Positions 5,821 through 45,376 of a stretch of DNA of 45,376 bases are shown in pieces. The notes under the pieces were generated by a model. That model made no database searches. It was not told where the DNA came from and saw nothing but the letters and a program-made list of their open reading frames with translations. Every line of letters begins with the position of its first letter. The first letter of the stretch is position 1. A program made the translations under genes and the position numbers. Source of the stretch: an uncultured Clostridia bacterium (GTDB lineage: Bacteria > Bacillota > Clostridia > Christensenellales > UBA1242); the NCBI GenBank assembly GCA_944372355.1, contig CALVYS010000005.1:1-45376 (forward strand), given 5' to 3'.

Positions 5821-5828
5821 AACCGGTA

Positions 5829-5857: not shown

Positions 5858-5875
5858 AACTTAAAGGAGATTGAT

Positions 5876-20536: not shown

Positions 20537-20563
20537 ATCAAGGAACTATTTTTACGGAGAACT

Positions 20564-24762: not shown

Positions 24763-24781
24763 CGTAGGCGAGGAGGGAAAA

Positions 24782-26836: not shown

Positions 26837-26866
26837 TTGACATTTTTTCGTAGAATGTTTTATAAT
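26837..26866 (+). promoter_or_regulatory. Consensus SigA promoter of the giant gene
   Basis: TTGACA-N18-TATAAT; GGGAGG RBS at 26941-26946. Confidence 0.75.
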
Positions 26867-26951
26867 TTTATATATCTAGATTTATTTTACTTTTTTGCGA
26901 CAAAATTTGATAAAAAGCGTTTATTTAAAAATAATAAAATGGGAGGCAAAT

Positions 26952-29900
26952 TTGAAGAAATATTTATTGGCAGTTTTAAGCGTTTTTCTTCTCGTGGGTG
27001 GCGTGTTTATTTCTGCATGCTCAAACAGTGCTCCACAAGCTGTAATCAACGTTTCTTCTTCTGACTTTGTTTCCGAAGATTACATCGAAATCGATTTAAA
27101 CTCTGACAGGCCTTATGCGCAAGTAACCGCAAGTGTTGAAAATGTTTCCTCAGGCAGGGTGAGCGCCAACAACAACTCAGAAAGCATATTGCAAGCAAGC
27201 GCTGCCTACAATTCAGACGCAAACAACACATTGATCACCATCACTGGTGTGAGTGAAGGATTGGGTTATGTTGAATTGCGCAGTGAGGAGGGCGATGGCA
27301 CAAGGCTTATCACGGTTTATGTTTACAGCGACATATTGGGCATGAGCCAGAAGGCCGATGAAGTTGGCCAAGCCAGCGACCAATATGTTGTCAGAAGTCA
27401 GCAGGGTGAAAACCTTGTCAACATTTTGGATTCTGAAAGATATCTGACCTTTCTTTCACGTGAAAATGGTGAAAGCAATCGAAAAGATGTGACATGGGCA
27501 TTTTCACAAAACCAGCAAAACAATTTGACCGGATTGATTTTGGAAGCAAACAGCCTTGTGGTTCAAAACGGCTACATTGGTGACACGGTTGAATTGGTGG
27601 CAAGCTCGGTTTACACAGATTACTCTGCAACCGTTCAGCTGCATGTGCTCTCTCAACTTTCAGAGCCAACTTTGCAGTTTAGCAGAAGTGCAAACTCCAA
27701 CTTTGGCGACTACAACTCATCGTTTGAAACCCTGGTAAAAAATGACCAGTCAAAAGCAGAATCCGCTCTTTATGTCAGCCTTTCGGTTGAAGCTTCTGAG
27801 GACATCGAGGTTTTGCCTGTTGTGCTTGACAGGTTTGGAAACAATGTGACAAATGCACTCACCATCAGGCGCATCAATGAAAGCTCGTCAGGTGGATTGA
27901 TTCAACGAACCTATGTCGTTGAAGCGGCAAGTGCAGGGTTGGATCCTCAAACATTGACGGTTTACTTTGAAGTTTCTTATCAAGACTACAATTACACTCA
28001 AAACAGCCAGCAGTTCCAAGTTTCCTTGGTCGACGTGGTGGATTCCATCAACATCACAACAGATGGACAAACCGTGACCAATGGCGACACATTTGATGTT
28101 TACAACAACTACAACAACACCGATGGCTCCGGCAACTATGGCAGGCCTTTCGTTGTTAACCTTGGCCCTGACACTGTGGCAAATGATCAAGCAACCTTTG
28201 CAATCAGAATGCGAGAAAATCCAAACGGCAGATTTTTGATATATGTTTCAAATTCAAACAGCAGCTATTACATTCAAGAAAATTTCACACCAGTGCTGAT
28301 TGATGGAATCACTTACTATCAAAGCCAGCCGATCGCCAATGGTTCAGTGGTGTATTTCAGAGCATCTGGAACCTTTGGAAGTGGTGATGAAACCGATGTT
28401 GCATTCTATTCAACTCAATCTGAAAATGTGGCCTTAAATTTCAAATTGCGCAGCTATTTTGCTCCAAGTGCCAATTTTAATTTCAGCAACAATGTCACTT
28501 TGGATTATCACATCTCAACACAAACTTTAAATTCTGTCACAATCTCTTTCACACTTGATGAAGTGCAGCTTGCAGACATTGCCTCTGGGTTATACTTGGA
28601 TCCGACAGATGGAGCAGGCAATCCAAACACCGATTTTGAAGTCAGTGAACTGACAATTGTTGGAGAAACCGGCACTTTCACTGTGTCAAACCTTGAAACC
28701 AACTTGACAGGTTCATCACTCACAATCGCTTTGAGGCACAGAAATGGCTTCTATGCTACGGCAAATTTCACTGTTCAGGCTTTTGTGCCTTTGTCAGATG
28801 CCGTGCTCAGCTATCAAGGCAACAGCACCAACGCGGTGGCTGCGTCGGGAAACGCTTATCAAACGAGTGGAGGCATTGAGTCGTTCACATTGAACAGGCT
28901 TGTGATGACCTCTACAAATTCTTTGGTGTTGAACGTTCGCACCAACACAAATGCAACATTGAGCAGCCCTTACGCTTTTGCGTTTTACAAAACAGACGAA
29001 GAGCTTGACGGTTCGATTCTTGATCAGCTTCAAGAAAGCATGCGTGACAATGCTTCCGTAACATTTGATGCGACAACGGGCAGAATGACGGTGAACAATG
29101 ATGTCAAAGGGTATGTGGTTTTCACCTTTGATGGCTTTGATCAAAAACACAATCAAATCACCGTGCAAAGATGGTTTTATTTGGAAGGCTTCACATCGCC
29201 AACCAGTCTGAGGCCAAACCCTCAAAGCCTTTCTCTCATTGCAAGAGATTCGATTTCCACGCAAGATGCATCACTGGCGCAGGGATCGGTGAGAGTGACA
29301 TTCAGAACCGATGGAAATGCAATCACTTACTATGACGAGAGCAATTTTAGTTTCACTTCCTCCACAGGGGCAAGCGTAAATTTGCTGGAAAAAGGCTATA
29401 ATTATCAAATAACAAAAATCAGCACAACAGATCAGGTTTTGAGCTTTGACGTCGTTGCAAACACCACAAATGGGTTCAAAACTTTTGTCGATACGCTGGT
29501 TGTGGAATACACTGTTTTTGGAAGAACTTATTACGCTACAATTGAAATCAACATAACAAATGCCACAAGAGTTGAGCAGGTTGTTTGGGAAAATCAAACC
29601 TCAGATGGTGAAATTTACATAGATCTTTATGCAACAAACTCCACAGACAGGCAGTTCACAATCATAACCTCAACCTTGCCTTTAAGTGCATATAACGACG
29701 AATTGACTTACATCTTTGTTCCAGACAGTGGCACAAGCGCGAACCTTGTTTCCATCAACGAGCTTGGCATTGTCACTCCAAATTCGCAAACAGTGGGTGG
29801 AACAGGAACCATCTTTGTGCTGCCTAGCGATGCCATAAGGGTTGTCGGCGGCGTGGCTCAAATCGTTTATCTTTCAGAAGTTGATGGAGAGGTTACATCA

Positions 29901-32900
29901 AATTCAGTCCCTCTTTCAGAGCTTTCCAATCGCTATGATGAAATCATAAACGGCTACTTTGTTTCAGACAGAACAGCCGAAGATGTTACTAATGTTTATT
30001 ATAGAGATATTATTCTTAGAATAAGATTAACTGTTGCAGATGGCAGAAGCGAAGAGACTGCAACAAGGATTTATAATGCCGCTCAGTTTGCAGAAATAGA
30101 TCCAAACATGCACTACATTCTCATGTCCTCAATCGAACTTGCAGATTGGGAGTCTTTTGGCGCGCCACTTACAGGATCACTGAAAGGCTATGACAACAAC
30201 ATTTCAATAAGTTTAACGGGCCAGCCAATTTTCAATCAAATTGCCTCAACTGGAAAATTTGAAAACTTCACTTTGTCTGGCGAAGTCAATGGCGGAGGCT
30301 TTGTTGCAAATCTCAACCAAGGGTCAATCAAAAATGTGACCATCACCGTGCAGTCATCTACTTCTTCACCAAGTTTGCTCAACGGCGGATATGAATTTGA
30401 TGGAAATCTTTATGCAGGTGCAATCGTCGGAATCAACGAGGGAAGCATAGGTGCAGAAGATGGCGAAGTCAGAATCGAAGGTGTGACAGTAGACATTGCA
30501 ACCGGCGACGACCTTTCTTATGCCGGTATGTTTGCCGGAAGCAACTCAGGAGCGATCTCTTACACTTACGGCGAATTCTATATTTTTGATCAAACAGAAA
30601 GTGGAGACGATGTCATCAACACCATCACAGCTGCATATGTTGGAGGCTTTGTTGGCAGCCTCACTGGCGGATCAATCACTCACAGCTATGTGTTTAACTA
30701 CACTTTTGATGGAAACGGCACATTCACTGCCAATGCATTGAATGCCGAAGTATATAGTGGGGCTTTTGCAGGGGCTTACAGTTCAGGCGAGATTTCAAAC
30801 TCTTTTGCAATGGTCCAAGATAATATTAATTCAGGAATACTAACAAACATTTCAAATTCTTACTGGGGTGTAAGCGACGACACAGGTGACACCAACTCAG
30901 AGTATTGGATCGATGCTGGCGAAGAAGGCTTTAATTCATATGTAAGAAACGGCCAGCCTCATCTTCGTTTCTATCAGTCAGAGGCGCTGCTGGATTTAAG
31001 CGTGATAGCAGTTCAAACCACTTCAAAATTTTTGCCAGTCAATAATGGAGAAGAGGGTATCTTGTTCTTGCACAGGGTGCAAAACAGTTTGGGCATGTCG
31101 GATTCAGCTTCCACAGCGCTGACGCAGCTCAACACCATCTCTTTTGTTGAATTGTTTGGCAACGCAAGCATCGTGGCAACCTCGCTCAACAACAACATTG
31201 CAGAGGTTGTTGGCAACAACGTCCTCATCAAAGAAACCGGCGATTTGACATTGCAAATCACAGGCAAACAAGACTACACTCAAAGCAGAGAAATCAACTT
31301 TAAAGTCGTTTATGTGGTGGAAGATTTCCAGGCAACCTATGGCGGCATTCAATCCACAGGTTTTGACTTGCAGGAAGGCCAAACCGCAAACATCATCTTC
31401 AAAATCAAAAACAGCGTCTATCTTGCAAACGAAACCCAGCCGAGAACGCTGCGTTTGGAAGAAATGAGCCTGACAAACGAGGTTGGCATAGAAGACGACA
31501 ATGGCGAGACTATCAACTTCGATAGTGAGTTTGTCAACTACACTGTCAACGGCATGGTTGGAACGGTGAGCTTTGGGCTTGGTTTGACTGATGAACTTGA
31601 AAACAGAACAAGCGTTATATTGACTTCAAAAATAAATCTGACCGATTTTGCAGATAACGATGCCTACCAAACGGCAATTGAGCAGGCTTTCTCGCAAAGC
31701 TTGACCGTGAGACCTTTCCAAGGTGCAAATGAGATTTTGACAAATGTTGACAGCATGACTATAAACCCTTCTGTCACATCAAAAATCACCGTTGTGCTTG
31801 CCACAGATTCGAGTGCAGACAGCATCAGTTTGCAACTGTTGAGAAATGGCTCTCCGCTCACTTTTGGCGGAGCAAACAACGGCCAAACATCATTTGTTTA
31901 CAGTGACGATGGCACCAGCGCAAGCATCTTCTATTCGCAGGCGATTTTAGATATGTCGATTTCAAGGTCAGCCTATGATGAAACCACACAAACTTACACC
32001 TATGAAATCACATTTAAGGTGGCGGAAGATTATCGCTCACAGATTGCGGCCAACGAGGATTACACTTTGGTGATTAGCTCGGTTTCTGGCACAGCAAGAA
32101 ATGAGGGCAGAGAAGTTGACATCACTTTGACAAGACAAGACATCAACTACATCGACATTGCAAACTATGAAGCTTCAAATGTTTCCAACATCAATGGAAA
32201 CATTGTCTACACTTACCAAACCAATCAAGTTTCGGTGCTTTCACCAGGACGCAGCTCATTTATGGTTGTAAATGTGGATCCAAGTTTTGCTTATTACAAC
32301 TATATGACTCTCACTTACAGCGCAGTCGACACAACAACCAATCAGCCATCTTCTTCAATCTTGACCATGGCAAAATTGAACGAGTTTTCGGGCGGCGGCG
32401 TCAACAACGGCTATGTTGTGGATTATTCATCAAATGTTTCAAATGATGTCATCAATGGTTTGAGGGTGAACAGAGATGACTCTGGCATCTATGTTTTCAG
32501 ACTGTATCCATCTCCAAACATTGGATCCGACACAACTTTTGTCATCACAGCAGCCTTCTACGATGCAAACGGCAATCAAATTGCACAGTCGGTTTACGAA
32601 TTGTTTGTTTCCTATCTGCCACAGGCTGAAATTTTGGTTGACGGTCAAAACTCCACAATTCTCGCCAAAGGCGGCACGGCAGAACTTTCCATCTTGTTGC
32701 AGCAGGGGCAAGAACTCGACTATTTGACGGCCACGGGAGCAACAGGTGTGACCATCTCTCCAAAAGAGGCTTGGCAGGTTGAAGAATTGAGCAATGGAAC
32801 CGTGCTTTACACAGCTCAGCTTCGTGCATCGCTGAATGCTTCTGTCAACGGCACAAATGGAACCTTTGAGGTTACTGCACAAGTTTCAAGATATCTCAAT

Positions 32901-35900
32901 GGTGAGACCGACCGCAAAACCTCCACGGCATATGTCACACTTGTGAACTTCAAACCAACCTCAGCAAGCTTGGAGGGAGCTACTTACAACTCATCAAACA
33001 ACACCTATATGTTTGACACTTATGTTGGCATCACAAATGGACTGACTTTTGATTACAGTTTCAATCCAGAGAGCTATGCTTATGACGCTTCAAATCAAGA
33101 CGAGGTCGAGCTTGCAAACAGTCTGTATGAAGCAAGAGAGCAGTTTATTCAAGCAGGTTATTATCAAGACGACGAAACCGGCTTTTCAATCAATTATTAT
33201 AACGGCAACGCCATTCCAATTTATCAGAGATTGGAAATGAATGGCACGCGTCTCAATTTCACGCAGTCTGGCGATGGCGTTTATACTTATTCAAACACAA
33301 GGTTCAGATTGACCTACACCGAAGAGCGCAATGATGACAACGAAATCACGAGTGCGTATCTCACCGTGACAGGATTGACAACAACAGCTTCGCCTGTTTA
33401 TCTGACCCTTGTTGACGAAATCAGATTGGACAGCGACGGCTCAGATGTGCTTTATGAAATAGAAACCAACTTTGCAATCTCAGTTGGAATTTATTCGGAT
33501 CAAGACAGGGCGTTGCCTATTCGCACAGCAGAAGAATTTTTGAGCGTGGCAGATGAAGGACAGGCAGCGGATTACATCTTGCTAAGCGACATCACCTTGA
33601 CAAACTACACTCCAATTTCTTCTTCAAACTTCCGCTCTCTTGATGGAAACGGCTACACAATCAACATTGAAAGCTTCAATCTTGAAGGGTCTGGAACGCT
33701 GAATTTGGCACTCTTCACAACGATTTCAGCAGATTCTGTCATCAAAAACGTTAGAGTCAATTATTATCAAAGCCAGCCTATAACCATTGATGTAACCTCA
33801 ACTGGCTATTCAAACATCAACATCGCGGGCTTGGCGATCACAAACAACGGAACGGTGACAAACACCCAAGTTGTTGCTTACAAAACGGCATCGACAAGCT
33901 TTACAAATTCTGGTGACATAGGAATCATCGTGAATTATGTTCGCGGTTCAACACCGGTTTACATCGATGCAAATTCCTCCATCAGCAGCCAGGTTGCAGG
34001 TTTTGTCATCACCAACTCAGGCTCCATCACCAACTCAAAAGTGGGAGGAGAGGAGATTATCATCATAGGCGAGCAGGTGGCAGACAGCGACAGATTTGAA
34101 TACACCACCGAATCGCTTTCCACCTTCACAATTTCGGCGCAGGGCACTGTGTCTGGGTTTGTCATCACCAACTCAGGCGACATTGCGTCAAGCAGCGCAT
34201 CACAGGTTCAAATAACAAACCTTGCTTCTTCCAACCAAACTCAAACCGCAGGCTTTGTCATCACCAACTCCGGTGACATTCGCGCCTCGGCAGTGCAAGG
34301 CGTCAAGAGGCAGGGCACGGGCAATGATGCTGACACCTATCATCGCACTGGCAGCAACATATCAGCAAACGGCACGGTTTCTGGATTTGCCATTCGCAAC
34401 ACCACAACAGGTGTGATCAGTGATGGCTACTCCAATATTCTCATCTCCGACAGATCCACTCAAAACAGTTTGACAAGTGCCGGATTCATCTATCAAAATG
34501 AGGGCTACATTGAAACCTCTTATGCAGCTTCGTATGTTGAAAAAGCCAACATTCGTCAACTCAGCTTCTCAGGTGTGGATTCCACCGGTCACTCGTTGAA
34601 CACCGGAACCATTGAGCTTTCTTACTACTATATCGCCGATTACGATGATGACACGGCAAGCGATGTGGAAGGCACTTTGGATTCTGCAAACCTTATAAGC
34701 AGAGAAGAGGTTGAAAATCAAAACGCCTACTATGGCTTCATCTTCAATTCAACCTCCTCAGCAGGTGACGGAATTTGGACGTTGATTGAAGGCGAGGGCG
34801 TGGAACCGGTTTCGCTTTCAACCTTGACAATCTCTCACAGATATTATGTTGCCGGGCAAGATGGAGAATACTTCCTTCCATATTCAATTCTGACAAACTC
34901 TGGCAACTCTTTCGCGCCGGATTACGACACAACATATGGCGAAGACATCAACCCAATTTTGATCACTTCGGCACAGGATTTCCAAGAGGCGATGGGTGCT
35001 TCAACCTCCACCTCAGTTGGCGGACAGTTCAATGACACAGAAATTTTTGGTTCCTATCGATTCGCTGCCGATATCGATCTTTCAGAGCTGAACAACGACA
35101 TTGGAAATGCCGAAGTTGGTTCGGTTGACAGAATTTTCAGCGGCCAAATTGACGGAAATGGCTTTACAATCAACAACATATCTCTTTCCAGCAGCAACAA
35201 CGCAGTTGGTCTGTTTGCAGAAACTCGAAATGCTTTGATTCAAAATCTCAACATTGAAATCAACTCGATCACTGCCGGCAACTCGGTTGTGGTTGGCGGG
35301 CTCGTTGGCGTGGCAAAAGATTCCAGAATCATCAACATTCAAATGAGCCAACGCACCACCACTTCGGGAGATTCCGAGGAGCGTGGCGTGCACGGCCGCA
35401 ATGTCACCGGAGGCATCGTGGGCGCGGCCTTTGGTCAAAGCGTGCTGGTGGGCCTTTCAGCCACAGACGCCATCGTTCAAAGCGGTTATTACAACAATTC
35501 AACAGCAAACAATTTTAATCAGGCAATCTACTCACGAGGCGATTGGTCCTTCAACGCGCAAGCAGTGCGAACTTACGCGGAGGCAAATTCGTCGCAGCTT
35601 TATGCGGCCGACGGCCTTGGTCAAACCTCGTTTGCAGGTGGGCTTGTGGGTTATCTAGACATTTACACAGCTTCACAAGTTTTGCAATCCAACTATATTT
35701 ATGTCACAAATCTCAGCAACTCTGATTACAGCGTAAGCAATTTCAGGGTCAACAATTCAATTGACGTGCGTGCAGAAATCGTGGGCGGTTTGATAGGCTA
35801 CACCGGTCCTCAAACCAGAGTGCAAGATGCTGGAATTTACTTCACAAATCAAGCCAACACCTATGCCAACCTGCTTTCTTACAACTTTGCAGCAGGCGGC

Positions 35901-38900: not shown

Positions 38901-41900
38901 GAGGGGTCTCAAATCGATATAATTTCAAACAAAACCTATGGTGATGTAATTTACACCTACGGCTCTGACTTCACGGGATTAGGTAGTTATCACTTTGGCG
39001 GCGTTGTTGGTGACGTGGATTCAGGTTCGGTATCACTTGGTGCAAACATTGTGGCGTTCACAAACAACAATCAAGCGCGCGCAAGTGGAACGCATTTCGC
39101 TGATGCAATGGTGGGGAATGGTGGCTTTACTCAGTATACAGGAATTTCGGATATCACCAACTATTATTCTTCGCAGCTTGTTTTGGCAACCAGCGACAAC
39201 GCTGTGGATTTGAACTACAACATAGAAAAAGGCACAACACCAGTCACAGGTTATTCTCCAAATGGTGAAAATTATCAGGCTCTAGCTCAATCCATCATTA
39301 CAAAGCTTTTTGGCAAAGATGTTTATGGCGACAGTGGCACAAAATTCAACCCTGTAACAGATGGCACAACAGCCGTTACCACTGAGGGTGAGGTAAAAAC
39401 AGTCAACACCACTCATGGCATTCAGTATTACACAACCAAATATCCAAACTACATTCAAGGCACCACTGAGTCAACCACTGAGACAACCACAACCTCGCCA
39501 AATGCCTACGCCTTTATCGGTGATTGGGTTCAGCAAACATCGGCACTTGAAACGCTTTCACAACACAGCTTCGTCTCCGGCGTTTACACCAATCTTGACA
39601 TTCAAGACGCAAATAATACGACTCGTTATGGCAAAAACAGCGGCGGAATTGTCAACACAATGACTGGCGGCATAATCTATGCCAGCCTATCCTCTGGCAC
39701 GCTTTCAGTGGGTGGAGGTGAAGATAAACAAATAAACCTTGGTGGCATCGTTGGCCTCATGACAGGCGGCTACATCAACGAATGCTCTTCCTCACTTGAA
39801 ATCGTCTATCGCGCAGCAACAGGTGGCACAGCTTCTGGCATTGCAACGTCGTTAGAAACAGACAACACAACAAACACACCGCTCAACAGAATTTACATCA
39901 ACAACACTTATTCAACTGGCACAATCACCTCTTACATTGATGCCAACCTCTTTTCCTTCACAAATGGCACAGCAGCGGGCACAGGCACCGATGGAAGAAC
40001 CCATTTCTACATTACAAACAGCTACACAATCTCTCGCGTAAATTGGAATGATTACACAAGTGATAAAACATCACATGCTAATACTATATATTTGGGCGTT
40101 ACTGGTTCTGCGCAAACAAATACTTTTGCCTATGATCCTAACGCTTTAGGAGATGCTTATAATAAAGAAAATAAAAGCACAGAAGCAATAGATAATTCCG
40201 ACGACTCACAAGATACAAATAAATGGATTTATCCAGCGTCATTTAATTCTAACGATTCAGGCTCTGTTCCAGGGGGTGGTATTCTGATTGGGACAGACAA
40301 AGGTTGGTCGAAAACTAACACGATCAACTATGGCTATCCTGTGCGCAACTTTGCACAATTCAAAGATTTTACAACTCAAACAACAATTGGCACCATAATT
40401 TATCAACAAATCCCAAATGTCACCAAGTTTGTTCAAGCATCTGACACAGACAAAAACTACATTCTCACAAACGACATTGATTTCAACGAAACGACTTATG
40501 CTGATTCTTGGACCAGCCTTATCTTTACAAACGTCGCATACTTCGATGGTGACGGGCACACGATCAGCAACCTTACGGCTAGGACATTGATTGACACGGT
40601 TCAAAACATTTCCAACCTCCGCGTGACAGATGCTGCGCTGAACGCCCAAGCAGTGGTTGCCCTTCATGTCACAGGAAACGCAACCAATGTGATCGCAACA
40701 GGAACGTTGAATGGCTCAGGCTCCAATGTTGGAGGGCTGTTCGCACAAGCAGAAGGGGAAATAGAAAATTGTAAAAACTATGTGGCAATATTAAGTTGTT
40801 CAACCCCAGGAGCGCGTGTTGGAGGAATTGTAGGGTATTCAACCGCTTCAATTTCCAACTCGTTCAACTATTCTCCAATTGATGCGAATGTAACAGGTGG
40901 TTATGTCGGAGGTATTGTGGGTTATTTATATGGATCCACCGGAAATGAAATTACTGATTGTGGCAATGAAAACACGGTGTTTAATGGTTACACCACTACA
41001 ACCAATAATGGCGACTATTATGCTGCCGGCATTGCAGGTTATTCAAATGTCAACATTTCCAACTGCTACAACACCTCGATGGTCAAAGCTGGCAACAAGG
41101 GCATCAATGCGGATGGATCTGGTGCAGCCTATGCCGCAGGTATAGTGGCAACAGCAAATAATAATATTTCAGTTTCCTCCTGCACAAACACCGGCTTCAT
41201 TGAGGCACTTGGAAGCAACACACCAAATACTAAAACAGCGTTCAGTTTTGGGGAAGATATATACTCAGACGGAAGCGAAGATGAAAATGAAAACAAACAA
41301 TTAACCGGCACGACAAAAAATGACGAATATTTTACTACAACGGAATACATTTCATACTTAATAAATTGCAATAATATAATAAACGTTCAGGTCGATCCTA
41401 TTGGAATTGACATGAGTAGTCAAAGTGACAACTTAAACGAAGGCTCGATTTACAAAAACGGAGCATTTGGCTCTCGGTCAGGAAGTGTGTTGGTGACAAT
41501 CCCAACCTACGAACCTGGCTGGAATGGTTCAAGCGTGAACATATCAGTTAATGATATAACAATTTCATTAACTTCTGCTCCAACAGCAGTTGTCGCAGAA
41601 ACCGATGAACTTGGTGCAATGACCAAATTCTATGTCAAGACCCAAAGAACGATTAATTATGCGTGGTCAGTTCAAAGATATCAACAACGATATTGGGAAG
41701 TTGTTGATATTAACCAAAATGGAAACCAACAAGTAGATTTTAGTCAAAATAAATATTATGCGCAACGAGCAAAAATGGGAACCTCTTATAATGGAGGTGG
41801 CGCAAGCATTAACACAAATCAAGGTTCAGGGGAATACGAACTAGTATCAATTAATGGAGCTAAATATTATTTTGTAGACAGTGCTTCTGCATTTATGACG

Positions 41901-44900
41901 GTGGTTCAGGCGGGCATTTCAACAGCCACGACAACATATAGTGGAACAATTGGTGAAAAGTCCATTGCAGCTTTGCAAGCCGCAGGTTACACTTTCTCTA
42001 TAACACCAACGACTGATCCTGAGAACTCAAATGTATCTGTTTCGTATTATTATCAAGATGAGAAGTTGTTTATCTCTTTCACAACACAAGATACGGGTGA
42101 TCCAGGTGTAACAATCACTGGTTATACAATTTTAGCAAATAAAGCTGATGAAACAGAAAGTTTCTCACTTTCAAGCAGTAATATAAAATTTGAAAAAGGT
42201 ACTATTACGATATATACAGATTTTGATGCAGATGTTCTGGCAAATTTACAAAATGGAAAAACATACAATGTTTCAGCTGGCAATGCAACATATAAATTCG
42301 TTTGGAATCAAGAAGAGGAAATATTAACATTCTCTGGTACCACTAAAAGTGATTACAATAATATTCTCGGAAGAGGTGTTGTGACCTTAACATTTCTTGA
42401 TGAGAACTCAATTCTTGAACAAACTGTTTCAACAGAGATAGGCCTGACTCCAACCAACATTGAGACATCTTATGATGGAAGCACAACAGAAACAATAAGG
42501 CATGTGAGAAGTATAGACTTTGTGATGTTTCGGGATGTTGTGGGAGATGAGACCGAAACGTTCACATTGTCAGGAAGCAATGATGTTCAGTTCTCAAATG
42601 ATGAAATAACGATTTATACAAACTTTAACTCAAACATAACTTCATCACTCATTAATGGCTGGGAGTATAATGTCAAGATAGATAATACAACTTACGAATT
42701 TATGTGGAATTCAACAAGCCAAACCTTAACAATGGCTGGTGATGAGGAGACATTTAACAAGATTAGAAATTCTAGCGCGACATTATATTATCTCAAATAT
42801 GTTGACAACGAAAACGAATTGATCATTTATGACGATGATTCGTTAACACTGACTCAAACTGTCACAGTCCAAGGCAGGGCAACAAGATTTTCTTTTGGCA
42901 ATTATGTTTATGAAATACCTGAATCAGGAGAAACTGACAATACTTTGGATTTGACTCCAAACGGTGGAACGAATGTGATGAACTTTAAAACGCGCTATGA
43001 TGGACAAATGACCATCTTAACAGTTGAAGCCGAAAGCTCTGATGGTATGTTGTCTGTTGCATTTTTAGGCGGGCGATATAAGTTCGAATTTGCAGATCCA
43101 ACTGGCGACAGCACGATGTTTGCAGAAACAAAAACAGTTGAAGACGTGGAGACATTCTCGGGAGATTTTGTAACGGCAACTTACACAAGATCAAATGAAG
43201 AAGGAGCATTTTCAAGCGTCGGCAAAACTTTGTATTTGGGAGAAGATACACTTGCGGGTCAGCAAGCCATAGTTGAGGTGTATGACTACACACAAACCTA
43301 TGATCTGTCACAAATCGAAATCGCCGTTCAAGAAGGCGAAGCAAGAGAATATCTTGCGGTATACAACACAACCGAAGAAACACAGAAAGTGAACAGTGGC
43401 GATGAAATCCGAACGATAACCTTTAACAATTTAAATGGAGCAAATATTTTATTAGTTTTAAAGAAGAGAAACGTTAACCTTTCTTTGGAGGCTTCAGAAG
43501 AGTTTATACAAGAGGGCTCTCTTAGTTTGACATTAAAAACTCAAGATGTTATTTTAACTGCAGAGGATGCGAACACTATAATAGGTGCATATAACACTGA
43601 TGAAACGCAGGCTACTTTCACCATAAACTCACAAGTATACTCTGTGCTGTTCGATGAAGATGGTAATATCACAAATATTTTAAACAGCAGTGGCATAGAA
43701 TCCGGTAATATAAATGATTATTACATAACAATCGATGGAATGAATTTTATGTTTATCAGTAATGATGATTCTGCTCCAATGCTGGTTGAATGTTTGGTCG
43801 GTTCTAATGGAACTGTTAATATTGAAAGCTTAAATATTTCATATGAAGCTAACACAGCAGAAAATGCAGAGCAGCCTTTTGTTTTCAAAGATGGAGACTC
43901 AATTATACCTATCACTCCTGCGACAGAAGATAGAGAGGCCTATATAACCATTAATGGAACAAATTATACATTCCAGCCTATCACAACTGTTATTGAAAAT
44001 ATTACTGATTACACGCAGGGTACTGATGAAGATGGAAATGTTGTTTTGGACATCATATATTCAATCGATAGTCTTAACGCTCCAAATGCCTATATTGAAG
44101 CAACCTTTGATCAATTATCCACCGGAACTCAAAATATAAGTATCGCTTACAATACCTACACTTTGGATTTTTCTACAACTGGATTAAAAAACATAACGTT
44201 TGTAGATGCAGAAAGTGAAGAGACCTCGAGTACAAATACAACATTTGGCCCAATATTTAATGGTGATTTAAGTGTGATAGGAAGTTATACTGCGACCGCT
44301 ACATATGATGATTACCAAGAGAAGAACATACCATTTGATAATCCTACTGATGATTCAGATGATGATCCTGAAACGGAAACTGTTGACCCTGCACCTATCG
44401 TGGTAACAGCTGATATCGATTTGGGAAATATTAATAGTGCTTTGCCTACAAAAGTTGCAATGATCACAAGCACAAATTCAAACATTGTAACTTTCCGCAC
44501 TCAAACAGCTACAGGTTTATTGGATCAGCAATCGTCAGGTAATTCAGAACAACCGGAATATAGCCCACTTATGATGAAAAATATCGCTTTTGCCGGTTCA
44601 GTGAAGATGGAGAATGGGAACAACTCATATGGTTTGATCGCCGCCAGTCTAAACAGCACCACGGCAATTAATGTTTCAACTTATGGGACGATTTACAATC
44701 TTGGTGCTGCAGGTGCGACAGGTGGAGGCGTGGCAGGGAGCTTTACTGGAATATTAAACAACGTGAAGTCTTTCACTTCCTTCTCACACGACACAAGCAA
44801 CACCTCTCGTGAAGACAGCGATTTCACCGGCTCGATGGCGGGAATTGCTTGGAAGATTACTCCTGAAAGCACTGAAAGCACTGAAAAGATTAGAGTTTTC

Positions 44901-45376
44901 AACTACGGCACGATAATTGGAACCAATGGCTCGCACGGCACTTCTTATGGAACAGGAGACACAAATAATACTAGAAATGGTGGCAACGGGCAAAGTGTTT
45001 ACGCGATTGCTTCTACCATTACTAACTCTGCGTCAAATGTGACTTTTACGGAGAGTTACAACTATGGCATAGTCAAAGCAGGCGACGCCGGCAGCGGCGC
45101 AAGAGGCCGCGACGGCGTTGGCGGCTCAGACACAAGCAACAATTCTTCCCCAGGCAATGGAACAAGTGGTGGCCTCGCAGGCACAGCCGGCAGTCCTGGA
45201 ATAGCTTACTTGCACGGGCAACTTAACGAGGAAGAAGATACAGAAATAGAATTGTTTGATGGAAGGCAAGAAAATCAAACACAAGAAAATCAAACAGCAA
45301 ACTCTGATAAAGTTTTTGGTAATATAGACCCAGTTGCAGGAAGCCGAGGCAACGACGGCTATGGTGGCTTGAATTT
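26952..45376 (+). CDS. Giant surface lipoprotein (at least 6,141 aa, runs off the 3' end) with Ig-like and GLUG/ZmpC-like modules
   Basis: TTG start after GGGAGG gives MKKYLLAVLSVFLLVGGVFISA-C (lipobox, Cys23). The same frame reads open wherever I translated it (27.2, 30.1, 31.2, 33.5, 35, 40.4, 42.2, 42.6 and 45 kb, and the last codons NDGYGGLN). The track lists no + ORF in this frame, as expected if there is no stop. Confidence 0.92.
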   Translation, partial: MKKYLLAVLSVFLLVGGVFISACSNSAPQAVINVSSSDFVSEDYIEIDLNSDRPYAQVTASVENVSSGRVSANNNSESILQASAAYNSDANNTLITITGVSEGLGYVELRSEEGDGTRLITVYVYSDILGMSQKADEVGQASDQYVVRSQQGENLVNILDSERYLTFLSRENGESNRKDVTWAFSQNQQNNLTGLILEANSLVVQNGYIGDTVELVASSVYTDYSATVQLHVLSQLSEPTLQFSRSANSNFGDYNSSFETLVKNDQSKAESALYVSLSVEASEDIEVLPVVLDRFGNNVTNALTIRRINESSSGGLIQRTYVVEAASAGLDPQTLTVYFEVSYQDYNYTQNSQQFQVSLVDVVDSINITTDGQTVTNGDTFDVYNNYNNTDGSGNYGRPFVVNLGPDTVANDQATFAIRMRENPNGRFLIYVSNSNSSYYIQENFTPVLIDGITYYQSQPIANGSVVYFRASGTFGSGDETDVAFYSTQSENVALNFKLRSYFAPSANFNFSNNVTLDYHISTQTLNSVTISFTLDEVQLADIASGLYLDPTDGAGNPNTDFEVSELTIVGETGTFTVSNLETNLTGSSLTIALRHRNGFYATANFTVQAFVPLSDAVLSYQGNSTNAVAASGNAYQTSGGIESFTLNRLVMTSTNSLVLNVRTNTNATLSSPYAFAFYKTDEELDGSILDQLQESMRDNASVTFDATTGRMTVNNDVKGYVVFTFDGFDQKHNQITVQRWFYLEGFTSPTSLRPNPQSLSLIARDSISTQDASLAQGSVRVTFRTDGNAITYYDESNFSFTSSTGASVNLLEKGYNYQITKISTTDQVLSFDVVANTTNGFKTFVDTLVVEYTVFGRTYYATIEINITNATRVEQVVWENQTSDGEIYIDLYATNSTDRQFTIITSTLPLSAYNDELTYIFVPDSGTSANLVSINELGIVTPNSQTVGGTGTIFVLPSDAIRVVGGVAQIVYLSEVDGEVTSNSVPLSELSNRYDEIINGYFVSDRTAEDVTNVYYRDIILRIRLTVADGRSEETATRIYNAAQFAEIDPNMHYILMSSIELADWESFGAPLTGSLKGYDNNISISLTGQPIFNQIASTGKFENFTLSGEVNGGGFVANLNQGSIKNVTITVQSSTSSPSLLNGGYEFDGNLYAGAIVGINEGSIGAEDGEVRIEGVTVDIATGDDLSYAGMFAGSNSGAISYTYGEFYIFDQTESGDDVINTITAAYVGGFVGSLTGGSITHSYVFNYTFDGNGTFTANALNAEVYSGAFAGAYSSGEISNSFAMVQDNINSGILTNISNSYWGVSDDTGDTNSEYWIDAGEEGFNSYVRNGQPHLRFYQSEALLDLSVIAVQTTSKFLPVNNGEEGILFLHRVQNSLGMSDSASTALTQLNTISFVELFGNASIVATSLNNNIAEVVGNNVLIKETGDLTLQITGKQDYTQSREINFKVVYVVEDFQATYGGIQSTGFDLQEGQTANIIFKIKNSVYLANETQPRTLRLEEMSLTNEVGIEDDNGETINFDSEFVNYTVNGMVGTVSFGLGLTDELENRTSVILTSKINLTDFADNDAYQTAIEQAFSQSLTVRPFQGANEILTNVDSMTINPSVTSKITVVLATDSSADSISLQLLRNGSPLTFGGANNGQTSFVYSDDGTSASIFYSQAILDMSISRSAYDETTQTYTYEITFKVAEDYRSQIAANEDYTLVISSVSGTARNEGREVDITLTRQDINYIDIANYEASNVSNINGNIVYTYQTNQVSVLSPGRSSFMVVNVDPSFAYYNYMTLTYSAVDTTTNQPSSSILTMAKLNEFSGGGVNNGYVVDYSSNVSNDVINGLRVNRDDSGIYVFRLYPSPNIGSDTTFVITAAFYDANGNQIAQSVYELFVSYLPQAEILVDGQNSTILAKGGTAELSILLQQGQELDYLTATGATGVTISPKEAWQVEELSNGTVLYTAQLRASLNASVNGTNGTFEVTAQVSRYLNGETDRKTSTAYVTLVNFKPTSASLEGATYNSSNNTYMFDTYVGITNGLTFDYSFNPESYAYDASNQDEVELANSLYEAREQFIQAGYYQDDETGFSINYYNGNAIPIYQRLEMNGTRLNFTQSGDGVYTYSNTRFRLTYTEERNDDNEITSAYLTVTGLTTTASPVYLTLVDEIRLDSDGSDVLYEIETNFAISVGIYSDQDRALPIRTAEEFLSVADEGQAADYILLSDITLTNYTPISSSNFRSLDGNGYTINIESFNLEGSGTLNLALFTTISADSVIKNVRVNYYQSQPITIDVTSTGYSNINIAGLAITNNGTVTNTQVVAYKTASTSFTNSGDIGIIVNYVRGSTPVYIDANSSISSQVAGFVITNSGSITNSKVGGEEIIIIGEQVADSDRFEYTTESLSTFTISAQGTVSGFVITNSGDIASSSASQVQITNLASSNQTQTAGFVITNSGDIRASAVQGVKRQGTGNDADTYHRTGSNISANGTVSGFAIRNTTTGVISDGYSNILISDRSTQNSLTSAGFIYQNEGYIETSYAASYVEKANIRQLSFSGVDSTGHSLNTGTIELSYYYIADYDDDTASDVEGTLDSANLISREEVENQNAYYGFIFNSTSSAGDGIWTLIEGEGVEPVSLSTLTISHRYYVAGQDGEYFLPYSILTNSGNSFAPDYDTTYGEDINPILITSAQDFQEAMGASTSTSVGGQFNDTEIFGSYRFAADIDLSELNNDIGNAEVGSVDRIFSGQIDGNGFTINNISLSSSNNAVGLFAETRNALIQNLNIEINSITAGNSVVVGGLVGVAKDSRIINIQMSQRTTTSGDSEERGVHGRNVTGGIVGAAFGQSVLVGLSATDAIVQSGYYNNSTANNFNQAIYSRGDWSFNAQAVRTYAEANSSQLYAADGLGQTSFAGGLVGYLDIYTASQVLQSNYIYVTNLSNSDYSVSNFRVNNSIDVRAEIVGGLIGYTGPQTRVQDAGIYFTNQANTYANLLSYNFAAGGLVGLANGDFYQVFAQYEQTLQDEIESSTSQYYGGASTTERGLTDIFEGTASEVGAQSYQPKFVGGLFGVIGTGRVYIAYSKINAINPQNGGYAGGIAGGVYNASEFLIDDPASSSSQATIATTLLLNEVYASGDVYAEGVFNNVATHFGGLFGRFLNVGSTNVKLSMAAVNAVNEYGILGEGYYSESNPTGINQINALVGTMDAGASVFVYAVSASGQNLPDVSDIKSYGYMSSYTSGSVTVNVKSGVYKETESSGDEETGSDDGSSPNEVDADYVFRIESVSSFTSPEDGFTDTNGAFINSNAWSSDNWIHETTKLYPDINLVNTISYIYLDQDNVDSVVARMQNSSIEVRVRGKRVDENGNVSYGYVDLRDYTIENFTGRLVGAVDNSWFVNSNFGAYTNGDENSTDIFSNNYPGIILNGTLFETPLSGATFQNLNIVFDSEPEGASIGSSFISGTNLQDLTFSDINAWFVDGVSITAEESGGNAYGGLFVSSATNTSFRNILLQFSATNTDSGNIVKFTTSTNNNNDEVQYTDAAFGLLAGQLVQGSPFDALRVQNITIKHKEIDNLDADHALMRVEIGNNVANLYAGLYVGNIRNSEGGQYAGVNITARAPQSANDDYSEDTFTSALSLGGGFSVTGTAYIGGFVGQISTSNTAFTFIKDQTYQQSINIYADFAAADMNIGGLFGDATLTSFSTDITVEGTQQLFDSNIRLTKNIGTDNGNDKKGNLNAGLLAGSISSGANISLNPTSRYTISGSISAAITSSTTETDTTGISGNAHLGGLVGRNNANITVTNLDLSFEIYGTGNDESADENAFELTNDAMGKAFQANAIDAGGLVGTNAGDLIIGEEQEVGPGTGVSVNADRENLRLQATGGELNAGGLVGNMTGGSATIQALSDNASIIWALGNTSGTTNVGGIIGDVTSGVSELSISKAQSDVNFFVSAKDVNAGGIIGHLNSAATIDSTEIDSTEFSGSFKVFGGTSNSGDHKMGGVVGYVGEGSQIDIISNKTYGDVIYTYGSDFTGLGSYHFGGVVGDVDSGSVSLGANIVAFTNNNQARASGTHFADAMVGNGGFTQYTGISDITNYYSSQLVLATSDNAVDLNYNIEKGTTPVTGYSPNGENYQALAQSIITKLFGKDVYGDSGTKFNPVTDGTTAVTTEGEVKTVNTTHGIQYYTTKYPNYIQGTTESTTETTTTSPNAYAFIGDWVQQTSALETLSQHSFVSGVYTNLDIQDANNTTRYGKNSGGIVNTMTGGIIYASLSSGTLSVGGGEDKQINLGGIVGLMTGGYINECSSSLEIVYRAATGGTASGIATSLETDNTTNTPLNRIYINNTYSTGTITSYIDANLFSFTNGTAAGTGTDGRTHFYITNSYTISRVNWNDYTSDKTSHANTIYLGVTGSAQTNTFAYDPNALGDAYNKENKSTEAIDNSDDSQDTNKWIYPASFNSNDSGSVPGGGILIGTDKGWSKTNTINYGYPVRNFAQFKDFTTQTTIGTIIYQQIPNVTKFVQASDTDKNYILTNDIDFNETTYADSWTSLIFTNVAYFDGDGHTISNLTARTLIDTVQNISNLRVTDAALNAQAVVALHVTGNATNVIATGTLNGSGSNVGGLFAQAEGEIENCKNYVAILSCSTPGARVGGIVGYSTASISNSFNYSPIDANVTGGYVGGIVGYLYGSTGNEITDCGNENTVFNGYTTTTNNGDYYAAGIAGYSNVNISNCYNTSMVKAGNKGINADGSGAAYAAGIVATANNNISVSSCTNTGFIEALGSNTPNTKTAFSFGEDIYSDGSEDENENKQLTGTTKNDEYFTTTEYISYLINCNNIINVQVDPIGIDMSSQSDNLNEGSIYKNGAFGSRSGSVLVTIPTYEPGWNGSSVNISVNDITISLTSAPTAVVAETDELGAMTKFYVKTQRTINYAWSVQRYQQRYWEVVDINQNGNQQVDFSQNKYYAQRAKMGTSYNGGGASINTNQGSGEYELVSINGAKYYFVDSASAFMTVVQAGISTATTTYSGTIGEKSIAALQAAGYTFSITPTTDPENSNVSVSYYYQDEKLFISFTTQDTGDPGVTITGYTILANKADETESFSLSSSNIKFEKGTITIYTDFDADVLANLQNGKTYNVSAGNATYKFVWNQEEEILTFSGTTKSDYNNILGRGVVTLTFLDENSILEQTVSTEIGLTPTNIETSYDGSTTETIRHVRSIDFVMFRDVVGDETETFTLSGSNDVQFSNDEITIYTNFNSNITSSLINGWEYNVKIDNTTYEFMWNSTSQTLTMAGDEETFNKIRNSSATLYYLKYVDNENELIIYDDDSLTLTQTVTVQGRATRFSFGNYVYEIPESGETDNTLDLTPNGGTNVMNFKTRYDGQMTILTVEAESSDGMLSVAFLGGRYKFEFADPTGDSTMFAETKTVEDVETFSGDFVTATYTRSNEEGAFSSVGKTLYLGEDTLAGQQAIVEVYDYTQTYDLSQIEIAVQEGEAREYLAVYNTTEETQKVNSGDEIRTITFNNLNGANILLVLKKRNVNLSLEASEEFIQEGSLSLTLKTQDVILTAEDANTIIGAYNTDETQATFTINSQVYSVLFDEDGNITNILNSSGIESGNINDYYITIDGMNFMFISNDDSAPMLVECLVGSNGTVNIESLNISYEANTAENAEQPFVFKDGDSIIPITPATEDREAYITINGTNYTFQPITTVIENITDYTQGTDEDGNVVLDIIYSIDSLNAPNAYIEATFDQLSTGTQNISIAYNTYTLDFSTTGLKNITFVDAESEETSSTNTTFGPIFNGDLSVIGSYTATATYDDYQEKNIPFDNPTDDSDDDPETETVDPAPIVVTADIDLGNINSALPTKVAMITSTNSNIVTFRTQTATGLLDQQSSGNSEQPEYSPLMMKNIAFAGSVKMENGNNSYGLIAASLNSTTAINVSTYGTIYNLGAAGATGGGVAGSFTGILNNVKSFTSFSHDTSNTSREDSDFTGSMAGIAWKITPESTESTEKIRVFNYGTIIGTNGSHGTSYGTGDTNNTRNGGNGQSVYAIASTITNSASNVTFTESYNYGIVKAGDAGSGARGRDGVGGSDTSNNSSPGNGTSGGLAGTAGSPGIAYLHGQLNEEEDTEIELFDGRQENQTQENQTANSDKVFGNIDPVAGSRGNDGYGGLN
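33999..34273 (+). repeat. Three near-identical 23-bp intragenic repeats encoding GFVITNSG
   Basis: GGNTTTGTCATCACCAACTCMGG at 33999, 34155 and 34251. Confidence 0.9.
38790..38819 (+). repeat. Perfect 15-bp tandem duplication (IDSTE x2)
   Basis: ATCGACAGCACTGAA x2. Confidence 0.9.
42147..42770 (+). repeat. Two diverged ~75-aa internal protein repeats
   Basis: DETESFSLS..ITIYTDF..L.NG..YNV..NATYKFVWN..LT at 42147 versus DETETFTLS..ITIYTNF..L.NG..YNV..NTTYEFMWN..LT at 42546. Confidence 0.85.
44863..44886 (+). repeat. 9-bp tandem repeat (ESTESTE)
   Basis: CTGAAAGCA x2 plus CTGAAA. Confidence 0.8.
45267..45296 (+). repeat. Perfect 15-bp tandem duplication (QENQT x2)
   Basis: CAAGAAAATCAAACA x2. 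Confidence 0.9.

Follow-up and report, generated by a model that had tools for sequence, protein, structure and literature searches.

The last part of a giant gene from an uncultured gut bacterium lies in a segment bounded by inverted repeats; one repeat arm is intragenic and the other lies downstream, where it heads a promoterless spare tail in the orientation opposite to that of the giant gene. Taken together, our analyses make it fairly probable that this gene encodes a giant lipoprotein fibre with β-helix modules, whose distal tip is switched by inversion and which is likely to act in attachment. The window, by which we mean the whole stretch of DNA analysed (45,376 nt), is the entire contig C5 of G000, a Clostridia MAG of 874 kb found in chicken gut metagenomes. 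Its lineage is probably family UBA1242 of Christensenellales.

An earlier note on this DNA had described one frame of at least 6,141 codons running off the window, with a promoter, a GGGAGG ribosome-binding site, a TTG start and an ISA-C lipobox. Full translation of positions 26952-45374 (+) gave a single frame of 6,141 codons with 0 stops, open at its 3' end at the window end, and each of the start signals was found:

26837..26866, + strand: sigma-70-type promoter-like site, TTGACA-18 nt-TATAAT, agreeing with 12/12 consensus positions and predicted from consensus alone.
26941..26946, + strand: Shine-Dalgarno GGGAGG, seen in the letters 5 nt upstream of the TTG at 26952.
26952..27020, + strand: lipoprotein signal peptide with a KK n-region, a hydrophobic core and the lipobox I-S-A-C, Cys23 being encoded at 27018-27020.
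26952..45374, + strand: giant lipoprotein gene, 6,141 codons, cut at its 3' end by the contig end with ~130-160 codons missing.

Judging from orthologs, the full-length protein should be about 6,280-6,300 aa, 130-160 aa of it unassembled. For the mature assembled part we computed a mass of ~656 kDa and a pI of 4.1. The description of the protein as N/T/S/G-rich and largely non-repetitive agrees with its composition (T 10.6, S 10.5, G 9.5 and N 9.0 %). Repeats in the gene amount to three tiny tandem arrays and four families of short direct repeats (30-53 nt); self-BLASTP revealed no internal protein repeats. Logan contigs from four runs in two studies cover the gene, with one or zero substitutions in three of the runs. 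The giant frame is a real, conserved gene. It occupies ~2 % of the G000 genome, 8.8 % of which is given over to seven frames with lengths of 1,500 aa or more, and tblastn of the giant protein against this genome recovered only weak paralogs.

A canonical lipobox, together with the genes for Lgt (PF01790, 226 bits) and LspA, the signal peptidase II (PF01252, 121 bits), in G000, supports the prediction that the giant protein is a membrane-tethered lipoprotein. It fits the lipobox pattern that was tested, [LVI][ASTVI][GAS]C behind a positive n-region and a hydrophobic core. A lipoprotein signal ([LFV][STA]AC) was present at the same place in 16/18 fetched orthologs, the remaining two being cut by the fetched stretch. 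The proposal of a single giant gene for a membrane-tethered protein is thereby strengthened.

GLUG modules had been placed near 30.05, 33.5, 35.0 and 40.4 kb, separated by many GG(L/I)VG coils, and both observations held up. Module-start motifs were located at residues 1055, 2208, 2702 and 4503 (window positions 30114, 33573, 35055 and 40458), and 24 GG(L/I)VG-like motifs were counted, clustered at residues 2782-3132, 3629-4016 and 4624-4692. Among six tiles of the protein, Pfam Glug (PF07581) rose above its cut-off once, at residues 1227-1248 (25.2 vs 20.5 bits), and in none of the other five. The further Pfam matches were sub-threshold DUF4313 for the whole protein, and sub-threshold DUF4313 plus other weak matches for the tiles. 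The parts of the protein can be laid out as follows:

27021..29981, + strand: N-terminal region, residues 24-1010, next to the membrane anchor; possible Ig-like β-sandwich modules, as a lead only.
30114..30695, + strand: first GLUG-type module, with its start motif at residue 1055 and the Pfam Glug match.
33522..34841, + strand: right-handed β-helix module, residues 2191-2630.
34935..36302, + strand: second right-handed β-helix module, residues 2662-3117, situated where conservation along the protein is highest.
40458..41030, + strand: start of the fourth module, with its motif at residue 4503 and GG(L/I)VG-like coils up to residue 4692.

The structure predicted for the β-helix part (pLDDT 76.4, pTM 0.80) was compared with solved structures, and the modules at 33.5 and 35.0 kb are modelled as right-handed β-helices resembling the helix of IgA1 proteases. 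The protein carries two or more right-handed β-helix modules of the GLUG / IgA1-protease type, four or five being the probable number. The earlier claim of Ig/Big-like stretches near the N-terminus was not confirmed: Pfam Big_2 was absent in 17 orthologs, the region had no match among PDB sequences, and its ESM Atlas leads to Big_2-rich clusters scored 0.85-0.88, all below 0.9. Near 44.4 kb, where the earlier note had tentatively put a further module, just a conserved island was found, and a weak language-model lead (<0.9, ESM Atlas) came from the region just upstream, 41712-44834.

The nearest β-helix is that of the GLUG / IgA1-protease proteins (ZmpA-type, M26) of Firmicutes and Bacteroides (PDB 6xja, 6xjb, 7uvk, 7uvl, 3n6z). 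The giant protein differs from these in carrying several helices along a 6,300-aa lipoprotein anchored by its lipobox, and in having no sequence-level PDB match even by profile; searches of solved-structure sequences with single sequences or with profiles A2 and A4 returned one chance hit (E 0.94). An M26 IgA1-specific metalloprotease was considered and rejected. No HExxH motif occurs in the 6,141 residues, so the assembled protein holds no M26 catalytic site; Peptidase_M26 was not found in Pfam scans, and the unassembled 130-160 aa would not accommodate the domain. Were the modules instead enzymes of another kind, such as the glycan lyases or hydrolases of phage tailspikes, the main role of the protein would be that of a tethered depolymerase opening the glycan layer of a partner or host, and not that of an adhesin. 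We regard this as unlikely, since the closest solved folds in the model comparison are the non-catalytic helices of IgA1 proteases, 4-6 Z units ahead of enzymes, and no tile matched a Pfam enzyme family.

With modules of this type, a long filament is therefore the most natural reading, and of the two forms that the earlier note had offered, filament or S-layer-like scaffold, we favour the filament. A scaffold coating the cell would fit a large, acidic, T/S/N/G-rich protein that is predicted to be surface-tethered and is conserved family-wide. Pfam scans revealed neither SLH nor any other S-layer domain, and known S-layers are not built from a non-repetitive chain of 650 kDa whose distal tip can be switched, so that we rate this reading as quite improbable. 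The same note had also proposed an undescribed class. Pfam searches and PDB searches by sequence and profile returned no full-length match to a characterised family, as that proposal implied; the building blocks are nevertheless a known fold and giant β-solenoid surface proteins are on record in the cited parts of PMC12863079, so that 'undescribed class' is too strong.

The core of the protein is kept across the whole family, and its last quarter differs even among strains. Matches to the giant gene were found in 22/24 genomes of the same genus and in 0/16 genomes from the order's other families. The 18 orthologs that were fetched have frames of 6,059-6,622 aa and are collinear with the window's gene up to ~residue 5100. 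A profile of the core (twin β-helix) matched in 95/121 family genomes and 46/58 genera, with frames up to ~8,400 aa. The region that varies most is the following:

41714..44835, + strand: strain-hypervariable region, residues ~4921-5961, replaced in run X7, with 10-14 % ortholog column identity, the lowest of the protein.

In run X7 one 35-kb contig agrees with the gene, scattered substitutions apart, between 26800 and 41714; 2,934 different letters then stand where the window has 3,120, and the agreement resumes at 44835. Loci L076 and L077 are 97-99 % identical to G006 in the flank and just 79-84 % identical in the giant gene. Such rapid evolution, both in the L076/L077 divergence and in the X7 block replacement, would be consistent with a surface ligand.

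The giant gene's 3' end lies within the segment flanked by inverted repeats and carrying alternative tails, and for this reason contig C5 stops at 45376. The left arm is placed as follows:

45026..45376, + strand: inverted repeat left arm, 351 nt, encoding a conserved glycine-rich stalk end from NYGIVKAGD (45060-45086) to GNDGYGGLN.

The right arm opens contig C7 of G000, beside a radC-like gene, with bases 1-77 assembled; 45026-45102 and the reverse complement of C7:1-77 are 100 % identical. In runs X1 and X7 the arm stretch forms a single contig of 351 and 346 nt, respectively, at ~2x the flanking depth (13.8 vs 7.8 and 7.1 in X1; 36.5 vs 15.9 and 15.5 in X7). Two paths, one from the gene and one from C7, lead into the X1 arm contig, and two distinct contigs of 472 and 475 nt lead out of it. 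Two inner pieces of ~445 nt were seen in the run contigs. The first 25 codons of the G000 spare tail are assembled, on C7; the interior of the segment, including the ends of both tails, is missing from the G000 assembly. When eight ortholog C-termini were used in tblastn for the missing C-terminus, they matched only C5 and the C7 arm, and other G000 contig ends with 5'-open frames (e.g. C21) had no similarity to it. A database ORF related to the G000 spare tail (P0012) was used as a query for longer proteins, and none was found within 467-2000 aa.

Two convergent alternative C-terminal tails between repeat arms were found in five relatives, whose arms compare as follows:

G006: arms of 103 nt, 98 % complementary.
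G007: arms of 106 nt, 87 % complementary.
G051: arms of 160 nt, 83 % complementary.
G093: arms of 305 nt, 96 % complementary.
G087: arms of 70 nt, 76 % complementary.

The tail ORFs are intact and convergent in the first four of these genomes, at 125-322 aa, with stops ~30 nt apart or overlapping. In the same four the arms are 90-100 % identical in at least the first 60 nt, and the flanks are 30-67 %, mostly 40-50 %, identical. Weak inner repeat pairs accompany the main arm pair in G051, G093 and G087. The repeats were absent in 10/16 loci examined; the switch is therefore optional and limited to one subclade. A profile of the tails matched in 2/121 family genomes, and a C-terminal query in 16/101 genomes of the genus.

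That the inverted copy is a functionless, decaying duplication, and that the strain tail swaps are ordinary recombination noise, is a very improbable account. It would explain the shortened or broken members among the spare tails, which measure 125-269 aa in the relatives (G007 is shortest at 125 aa, L075 is split and L077 has decayed), as well as the absence of the repeat from most relatives. It is at odds with the intact spare ORFs of 217-269 aa in G006, G051 and G093, which end in a shared C-terminal motif, and with arms held at 96-100 % identity in three species while their flanks are at background. Furthermore, 35 of the 41 database matches of the tail profile are short ORFs (105-462 aa), and those inspected are intact spare-tail ORFs; the 35 may include contig-end fragments.

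In the G006 species both states of the segment are recorded: each of the two tails has one record on the giant gene and one as the spare. P0008 has the radC-side flank at its start, followed by the gene tail of G006 (99.1 % over 226 aa). P0011 is a giant of 6,076 aa, 90 % identical to the G006 giant overall and mostly 97-100 % per 200-aa window, and its tail is the spare tail of G006 (97 % over 217-227 aa). An arm variant absent from G006 is common to P0008 and P0011; they are possibly independent strain repertoires rather than parts linked to one genome. The gene tail of L076/L077 likewise occupies the spare position in P0006 (94-95 % over 214-224 aa). Changes of position were also seen across species, the gene tail of G007 resembling the spare tail of G093, and that of G047 the spare tail of G051. 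The reciprocal states in two strains of one related species point to a flip that has occurred in nature, and by extension we infer one in the window's own species.

An alternative, in which the inverted copy acts as a silent donor cassette and tails are altered by non-reciprocal gene conversion as in pilS/pilE-type systems, was weighed against these same states. Near-identical arms are equally needed by and produced by conversion, RecA is present in the absence of an adjoining recombinase, and one flank is joined to many tails in related strains (P0006, P0008, P0016, P0017 and P0033). Conversion, however, keeps its donor, yet tail A stands at the spare position exactly where the gene has tail B, and an arm variant is common to the two; a reciprocal flip predicts this exchange. 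The convergent inverted layout, which conversion does not need, is kept in five species. We therefore hold conversion to be unlikely and inversion to be the better account.

The metagenome data bear on this within the limits of their assembly: all matched sequencing runs were available as Logan contigs (k = 31; none listed as RNA), which break at the repeat so that orientation is not readable. Five stretches on four metagenome contigs were examined for the segment in opposite orientation and none was inverted; stretches of the G006 and G007 species were collinear with the reference or bore other tails. No contig held both orientations within one sample, which Logan contigs cannot show.

A conserved motif that marks off a hypervariable C-terminal domain, with a spare module downstream, would also suit a polymorphic-toxin-like delivery protein in which the variable tails are toxins and the downstream copy is an orphan toxin module; CdiA/Rhs orphan modules have a similar layout. 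The convergent stops, which overlap or are separated by ~30 nt, leave no space for an immunity gene; a radC-like gene always comes next, and the spare module is inverted rather than in tandem. Moreover, eight tails lacked a Pfam family, the tails had no match to a toxin fold (weak evidence), and the tail profile matched this family alone in 1.84 billion representatives. We give this alternative hardly any credence. Weak matches of the tails in PHROGs to collagen-like tail-fibre proteins (best E 8e-5) fall in the glycine-rich part and are read as compositional.

Downstream of the locus, seven relatives carry the radC-like gene (always next), small ORFs, uvrB and uvrA, and no adjoining recombinase was found in any of the seven. 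G000 encodes one serine and one tyrosine recombinase, both on contigs other than the locus, and RecA. With no recombinase adjoining, the flip would be driven by RecA acting on the identical arms of 77-351 nt, or by a recombinase encoded elsewhere.

Switches of comparable layout are known. In the phage Mu G and P1 C segments and the Moraxella type IV pilin (Q/I), a constant N-terminal part lies outside the invertible segment and two convergent variable C-terminal parts lie inside it, and the receptor-facing end of the fibre is switched; these systems rely on crossover sites that are short and on a dedicated invertase (Gin, Cin, Piv) whose gene adjoins the segment. The locus described here shares the constant part outside and the two convergent tails inside, but has long homologous arms, no adjoining invertase and a cellular protein ~10x larger. 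R64-type shufflons have several invertible segments, short sfx repeats and the Rci recombinase; assignment to this type was rejected on account of the single segment, the one long arm pair and the lack of an adjoining recombinase. In Campylobacter fetus sap, RecA-dependent inversion between long conserved coding repeats switches the variable surface-protein part that is expressed; the segment that inverts there carries the promoter and lies between whole genes with common 5' ends. Long coding repeats and a switched variable part of a surface protein are common to both, whereas here it is the 3' end of a single gene that is exchanged.

Gene-altering inversions ('partial intergenic invertons', shufflon-like) have been catalogued (Milman et al. 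2023, as cited; Chanin et al., bioRxiv 10.1101/2023.03.11.532203). As far as the quoted parts of these sources describe them, they have one arm inside a gene and one outside, a homologous alternative domain in reverse, and a gene end that is swapped by the flip, as at the present locus. By the same description they differ in three respects: the arms here, at 77-351 nt, are long and take in coding sequence; they have no adjoining recombinase; and the gene is that of a giant lipoprotein of uncultured reduced-genome Clostridia, its flip being deduced from strains rather than from long reads. The lists in the inverton catalogues might already include such loci.

Giant surface proteins in a small-genome Firmicute have been described for Apilactobacillus kunkeei, which in the cited parts of PMC12863079 spends several per cent of its genome on Giant1-5, extracellular proteins of 3,000-8,000 aa with β-solenoid domains that are diversified by intragenic recombination. 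Going by that description, G000 resembles it in the share of its genome held by very large frames. The solenoid of the A. kunkeei Giants is N-terminal and akin to serine-rich-repeat adhesins, and no inversion cassette is reported in those parts of the source (PMC12863079).

On the joint reading favoured here, the N-terminus would anchor the giant protein by lipid in the cytoplasmic membrane, and the protein may extend as a long, largely rigid fibre across the wall, of some 100-200 nm by a rough estimate based on module sizes. In a rigid fibre anchored in this way the variable C-terminal tail (~140-270 residues) would be the distal tip. Recombination between the repeat arms would then flip the segment and exchange the tip for the spare. 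Attachment, either to partner cells or to the surface of a host, would most likely be the fibre's function, and a switch of tip could change or hide its binding specificity. The adhesin role is inferred; attachment fits a bacterium apparently dependent on partners, UBA1242 having been described as metabolically deficient and probably partner-dependent (PMC12306168). A bolder and more doubtful extension, which we put forward tentatively, is that the fibre serves an ultra-reduced, obligately partner-dependent lineage of gut Clostridia as its organelle of partner recognition. Tip inversion might then be a phage-tail-fibre-like host-range switch in a cellular epibiont or parasite, working through general recombination on long coding repeats without a dedicated invertase, and replacement of the last quarter might reflect an arms race with partner surfaces.

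The family-wide fibre gene is an obvious candidate for the attachment of partner-dependent UBA1242 bacteria. Its tails are small, separable domains that could be expressed and used as baits for a ligand or partner. The switch adds a case in which the C-terminus of a giant surface protein is recoded by inversion with no neighbouring recombinase. Because the repeat arms cause assembly breaks and an apparently 'truncated' giant gene, comparable switches are probably hidden at contig ends of many MAGs. One study found a negative association of UBA1242-type bacteria with broiler weight, according to the cited part of PMC13155120; its data include 61 metatranscriptomes with UBA1242 MAGs. Bacteria of this family are uncultured and are common in animal guts.

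The earlier note had claimed a lipoprotein gene of at least 6,141 codons in one frame leaving the window. Translated from 26952 (+), the frame ran for 6,141 codons without a stop, its final complete codon ending at 45374. The proposed start signals were all read in the sequence: a promoter-like TTGACA-18-TATAAT at 26837-26866 matching the consensus at 12 of 12 positions, GGGAGG at 26941-26946, a TTG start 5 nt further on, and an N-terminus in which a KK n-region and hydrophobic core precede the lipobox I-S-A-C (Cys23). The claimed N/T/S/G richness and largely non-repetitive DNA were likewise borne out by the composition (T 10.6, S 10.5, G 9.5 and N 9.0%) and by the few short repeats (three micro-arrays of two copies each and four families of short direct repeats). 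There are nine cysteines overall, and the mature part within the window is ~656 kDa with a pI of 4.1. Four of the upstream neighbours were ordinary; four other sizeable ORFs had no Pfam family at E ≤0.001:

9337-11928, plus strand, ORF of 863 aa, no Pfam family
14854-16011, minus strand, ORF of 385 aa, no Pfam family
17361-20489, plus strand, Mfd
20528-22327, plus strand, ORF of 599 aa, no Pfam family
22390-23682, plus strand, protein with a lysyl-phosphatidylglycerol synthase TM region
23716-24249, plus strand, ORF of 177 aa, no Pfam family
24752-25357, plus strand, M23 peptidase
26079-26792, minus strand, divergent PP-loop ATPase (called ttcA in the earlier note)

Independent contigs from four public sequencing runs, belonging to two studies and labelled chicken gut metagenome, covered the giant gene. 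No substitutions were listed in runs X1 and X3 and one in X2, while X7 is a diverged strain. A query of the N-terminal 2,000 residues matched 22 of 24 same-genus genomes but gave no match in 16 genomes representing 16 further families of the order. The longest frames of 18 fetched orthologs were 6,059-6,622 aa, most of them delimited by stops within long contigs; 16 began with the same lipoprotein signal and the remaining two were clipped at the fetched stretch. Collinearity with the window's protein extended to about residue 5100 in these orthologs, the eight compared being 28-41% identical to it. The last window residue aligned 126-158 residues short of the ortholog C-termini, and the window therefore holds ~98% of a protein of ~6,280-6,300 aa.

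The four proposed module starts were located at residues 1055, 2208, 2702 and 4503; the Ig/Big-like character of the N-terminal 1,000 residues is a lead only. Pfam gave one Glug motif above cut-off (residues 1227-1248) and almost nothing else, and PDB sequence and profile searches with giant-protein queries returned no match. Residues 2150-3250 were modelled with AlphaFold2 from 19 sequences (pLDDT 76.4, pTM 0.80); the prediction contains two right-handed beta-helices (model residues 42-481 and 513-968), and for each the best superposition was with the IgA1-protease helix and a Bacteroides homolog. Their fold and a single motif match place the predicted helices with GLUG/IgA1-protease-type domains, in keeping with the GLUG/ZmpC-like modules first proposed. 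Membership in the IgA1-protease (M26) family was rejected, since no HExxH motif occurs anywhere in the assembled giant protein; it is thus not a protease of that family. Column identity peaked at ~50% at residues 2200-2800 and fell to a minimum of 10-14% at residues 5100-5800, with a conserved island around residues 5900-6100.

The source genome (874,025 bp in 32 contigs, scored 98% complete) is small; the window is the entire contig C5. Genomes of its genus and family are 0.7-1.6 Mb, versus 1.3-3.9 Mb in the order's other families, which fits family UBA1242 of Christensenellales. For this family, sub-1-Mb genomes from which many biosynthetic pathways are missing and a probable dependence on partners have been described, with no mention of giant proteins (PMC12306168). 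A profile of residues 2150-3250, the most conserved part, matched 95 of 121 family genomes and 46 of 58 genera; among the family matches listed, frames were mostly 3,000-8,400 aa, often with two paralogs per genome. Outside the family it matched 22 of 78 genomes, in frames of 241-4,490 aa and over short parts of the profile only, mostly a ~130-residue helix cap. The giant architecture thus marks out this family of reduced genomes. The source genome has seven frames of 1,500 aa or more, which take up 77 kb (8.8%); the other six (1,649-4,427 aa) lie on contigs C2, C7, C13, C1 and C23. Lipobox-like N-termini occur in three of the seven: the giant gene, the C2 frame (3,763 aa) and C7:18945-29333 (3,463 aa). 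The last of these shares the giant protein's beta-helix core (26% over 879 aa; profile E 2e-42); it starts ~19 kb beyond a radC-like gene on that contig, so it is probably just downstream of the giant locus.

The gene end lies in an inverted repeat. Window bases 45026-45102 are identical to the reverse complement of bases 1-77 of C7, a contig that leads beyond this arm into the radC-like gene. On the C7 strand, a short frame passes directly from non-coding flank into the giant gene's own peptide. In X1, a single 351-nt contig (depth 13.8) spans exactly 45026-45376; it is entered from the gene side (depth 7.8) and the C7 side (7.1) and left by two separate contigs, 472 and 475 nt long (8.6 and 5.5). 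X7, from the other study, repeated this picture (346 nt, depth 36.5 versus 15.9 and 15.5). Doubled depth with two entries and two exits therefore places the gene end in a 351-nt two-copy inverted repeat, which also explains why the window stops, by an assembly break, at the repeat's inner edge. Between the arms lies ~0.85 kb of unique, unassembled DNA.

Arm pairs were found in five related genomes (length, identity):

G006, 103 nt, 98%
G007, 106 nt, 87%
G051, 160 nt, 83%
G093, 305 nt, 96%
G087, 70 nt, 76%

Such a pair was absent from ten other loci examined, two of which have short weak pairs only (27-40 nt). The left arm begins a few codons ahead of a conserved NYG(I/V)VKAGDGGNG motif in the giant gene; downstream, on the opposite strand, the right arm heads a frame that lacks its own start signal. 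In G006, G007, G051 and G093 the gene tail (216-322 aa past the motif) and this spare tail (125-269 aa) are convergent, their stops ~30 nt apart or overlapping. Arm identity in these four is a step function, 90-100% over at least the first 60 nt, with both sides outside the arms at a background of 30-67% (mostly 40-50%). The next gene is always radC-like, followed in most by uvrB and uvrA.

Database proteins carried the opposite arrangement. At its start P0008 (248 aa) agrees in 19 of 22 residues with the peptide that flanks the G006 locus on the radC side, and past the arm it carries G006's giant-gene tail (99.1% over 226 aa). P0011, a 6,076-aa giant 90% identical to that of G006 over 5,916 residues (mostly 97-100% in 200-aa windows), ends in G006's spare tail (97% over 217-227 aa). 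Both share an arm variant missing from both G006 arms. Inversion predicts such a reciprocal exchange and non-reciprocal gene conversion does not; the exchange of tails between P0008/P0011 and G006 appears reciprocal, which argues against conversion. In a second case, the tail borne by the giant gene in metagenome loci L076 and L077 follows the flank peptide in P0006 (94-95% over 214-224 aa). Between species, the gene tail of G007 has the G093 spare tail as its closest match, and that of G047 is near the G051 spare tail, though this is not its best match. These comparisons indicate that the segment has flipped in nature between strains of G006's species, P0008 and P0011 possibly coming from separate genomes. 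No sample showed both states, and none of these observations came from the source genome's own species, for which we infer a flip. At least five different tails follow nearly one radC-side flank peptide in G006-related ORFs (P0006, P0008, P0016, P0017 and P0033), so that the strains together keep a varied set of tails at the spare position.

No recombinase adjoins the locus in seven relatives whose downstream genes were read. The source genome encodes RecA, one tyrosine recombinase elsewhere and one large serine recombinase, its only one (C16:25514-25945, minus strand, a 527-aa frame), at the end of a low-GC contig (38.4% versus ~42% elsewhere) that may there be prophage or another mobile element. 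With 77-351 identical bases, the arms would be long enough for homologous recombination. In layout the switch is like those of the Mu G segment and of Moraxella pilin, but here the arms are long and coding and no invertase is neighbouring. The switch falls in the class of gene-altering ('partial intergenic', shufflon-like) inversions as outlined in 10.1101/2023.03.11.532203, and giant beta-solenoid surface proteins diversifying by recombination are described from Apilactobacillus kunkeei (PMC12863079). We found no published description of this protein family or switch, which supplementary inverton lists might include.

The distal quarter evolves faster than any other part of the protein. L076 and L077 are 97-99% identical to the G006 locus (L060) in the housekeeping flank from the radC-like gene onward but just 79-84% in the giant gene, and P0011 compared with G006 is mosaic, some windows being 97-100% identical and others 69-81%; together these suggest frequent intragenic recombination. 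The X7 35-kb contig tracks the giant gene with scattered substitutions and small indels, apart from a 3.1-kb block (41714-44835) swapped for 2,934 unrelated letters before rejoining at 44835, a strain-level cassette-like replacement of residues ~4921-5961. The N-terminal lipid anchor would put the C-terminus farthest from the membrane, and an extracellular fibre would be in keeping with the rigid helices and the acidic, Cys-poor, T/S/N-rich chain. The main functional rival gives the helices a tethered glycan-degrading role. Because the genome is very small and the family is thought partner-dependent, we read the protein as an attachment fibre with switchable tip specificity.

The tails share a plan: the motif, a glycine-rich stretch, G-x-A-Y, GNDGWGGLNL-x-KY, ~130 variable beta-rich residues and, at the end, (F/Y)-Y-V...S-A. 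Among 1.84 billion representatives, a profile built on 22 tails matched only 41 proteins: 4 giant C-termini (6,059-6,321 aa), 2 fragments (1,494 and 2,280 aa) and 35 short ORFs (105-462 aa), none of the 41 in a phage or toxin context. The tail was modelled as a beta-sheet domain (pLDDT 71, pTM 0.58), for which no structural relatives were found. This tail type is restricted to part of the genus: matches came from 16 of 101 genus genomes with the C-terminal query and from 2 of 121 family genomes, both within the same genus, with the tail profile. A 100-nt tail-end stretch is 98% identical between the G007 species (L075:3394-3492) and G093 (L071:3359-3458), the tails being otherwise ~37% identical as protein, and could stem either from a recent exchange or from strong constraint on a C-terminal motif.
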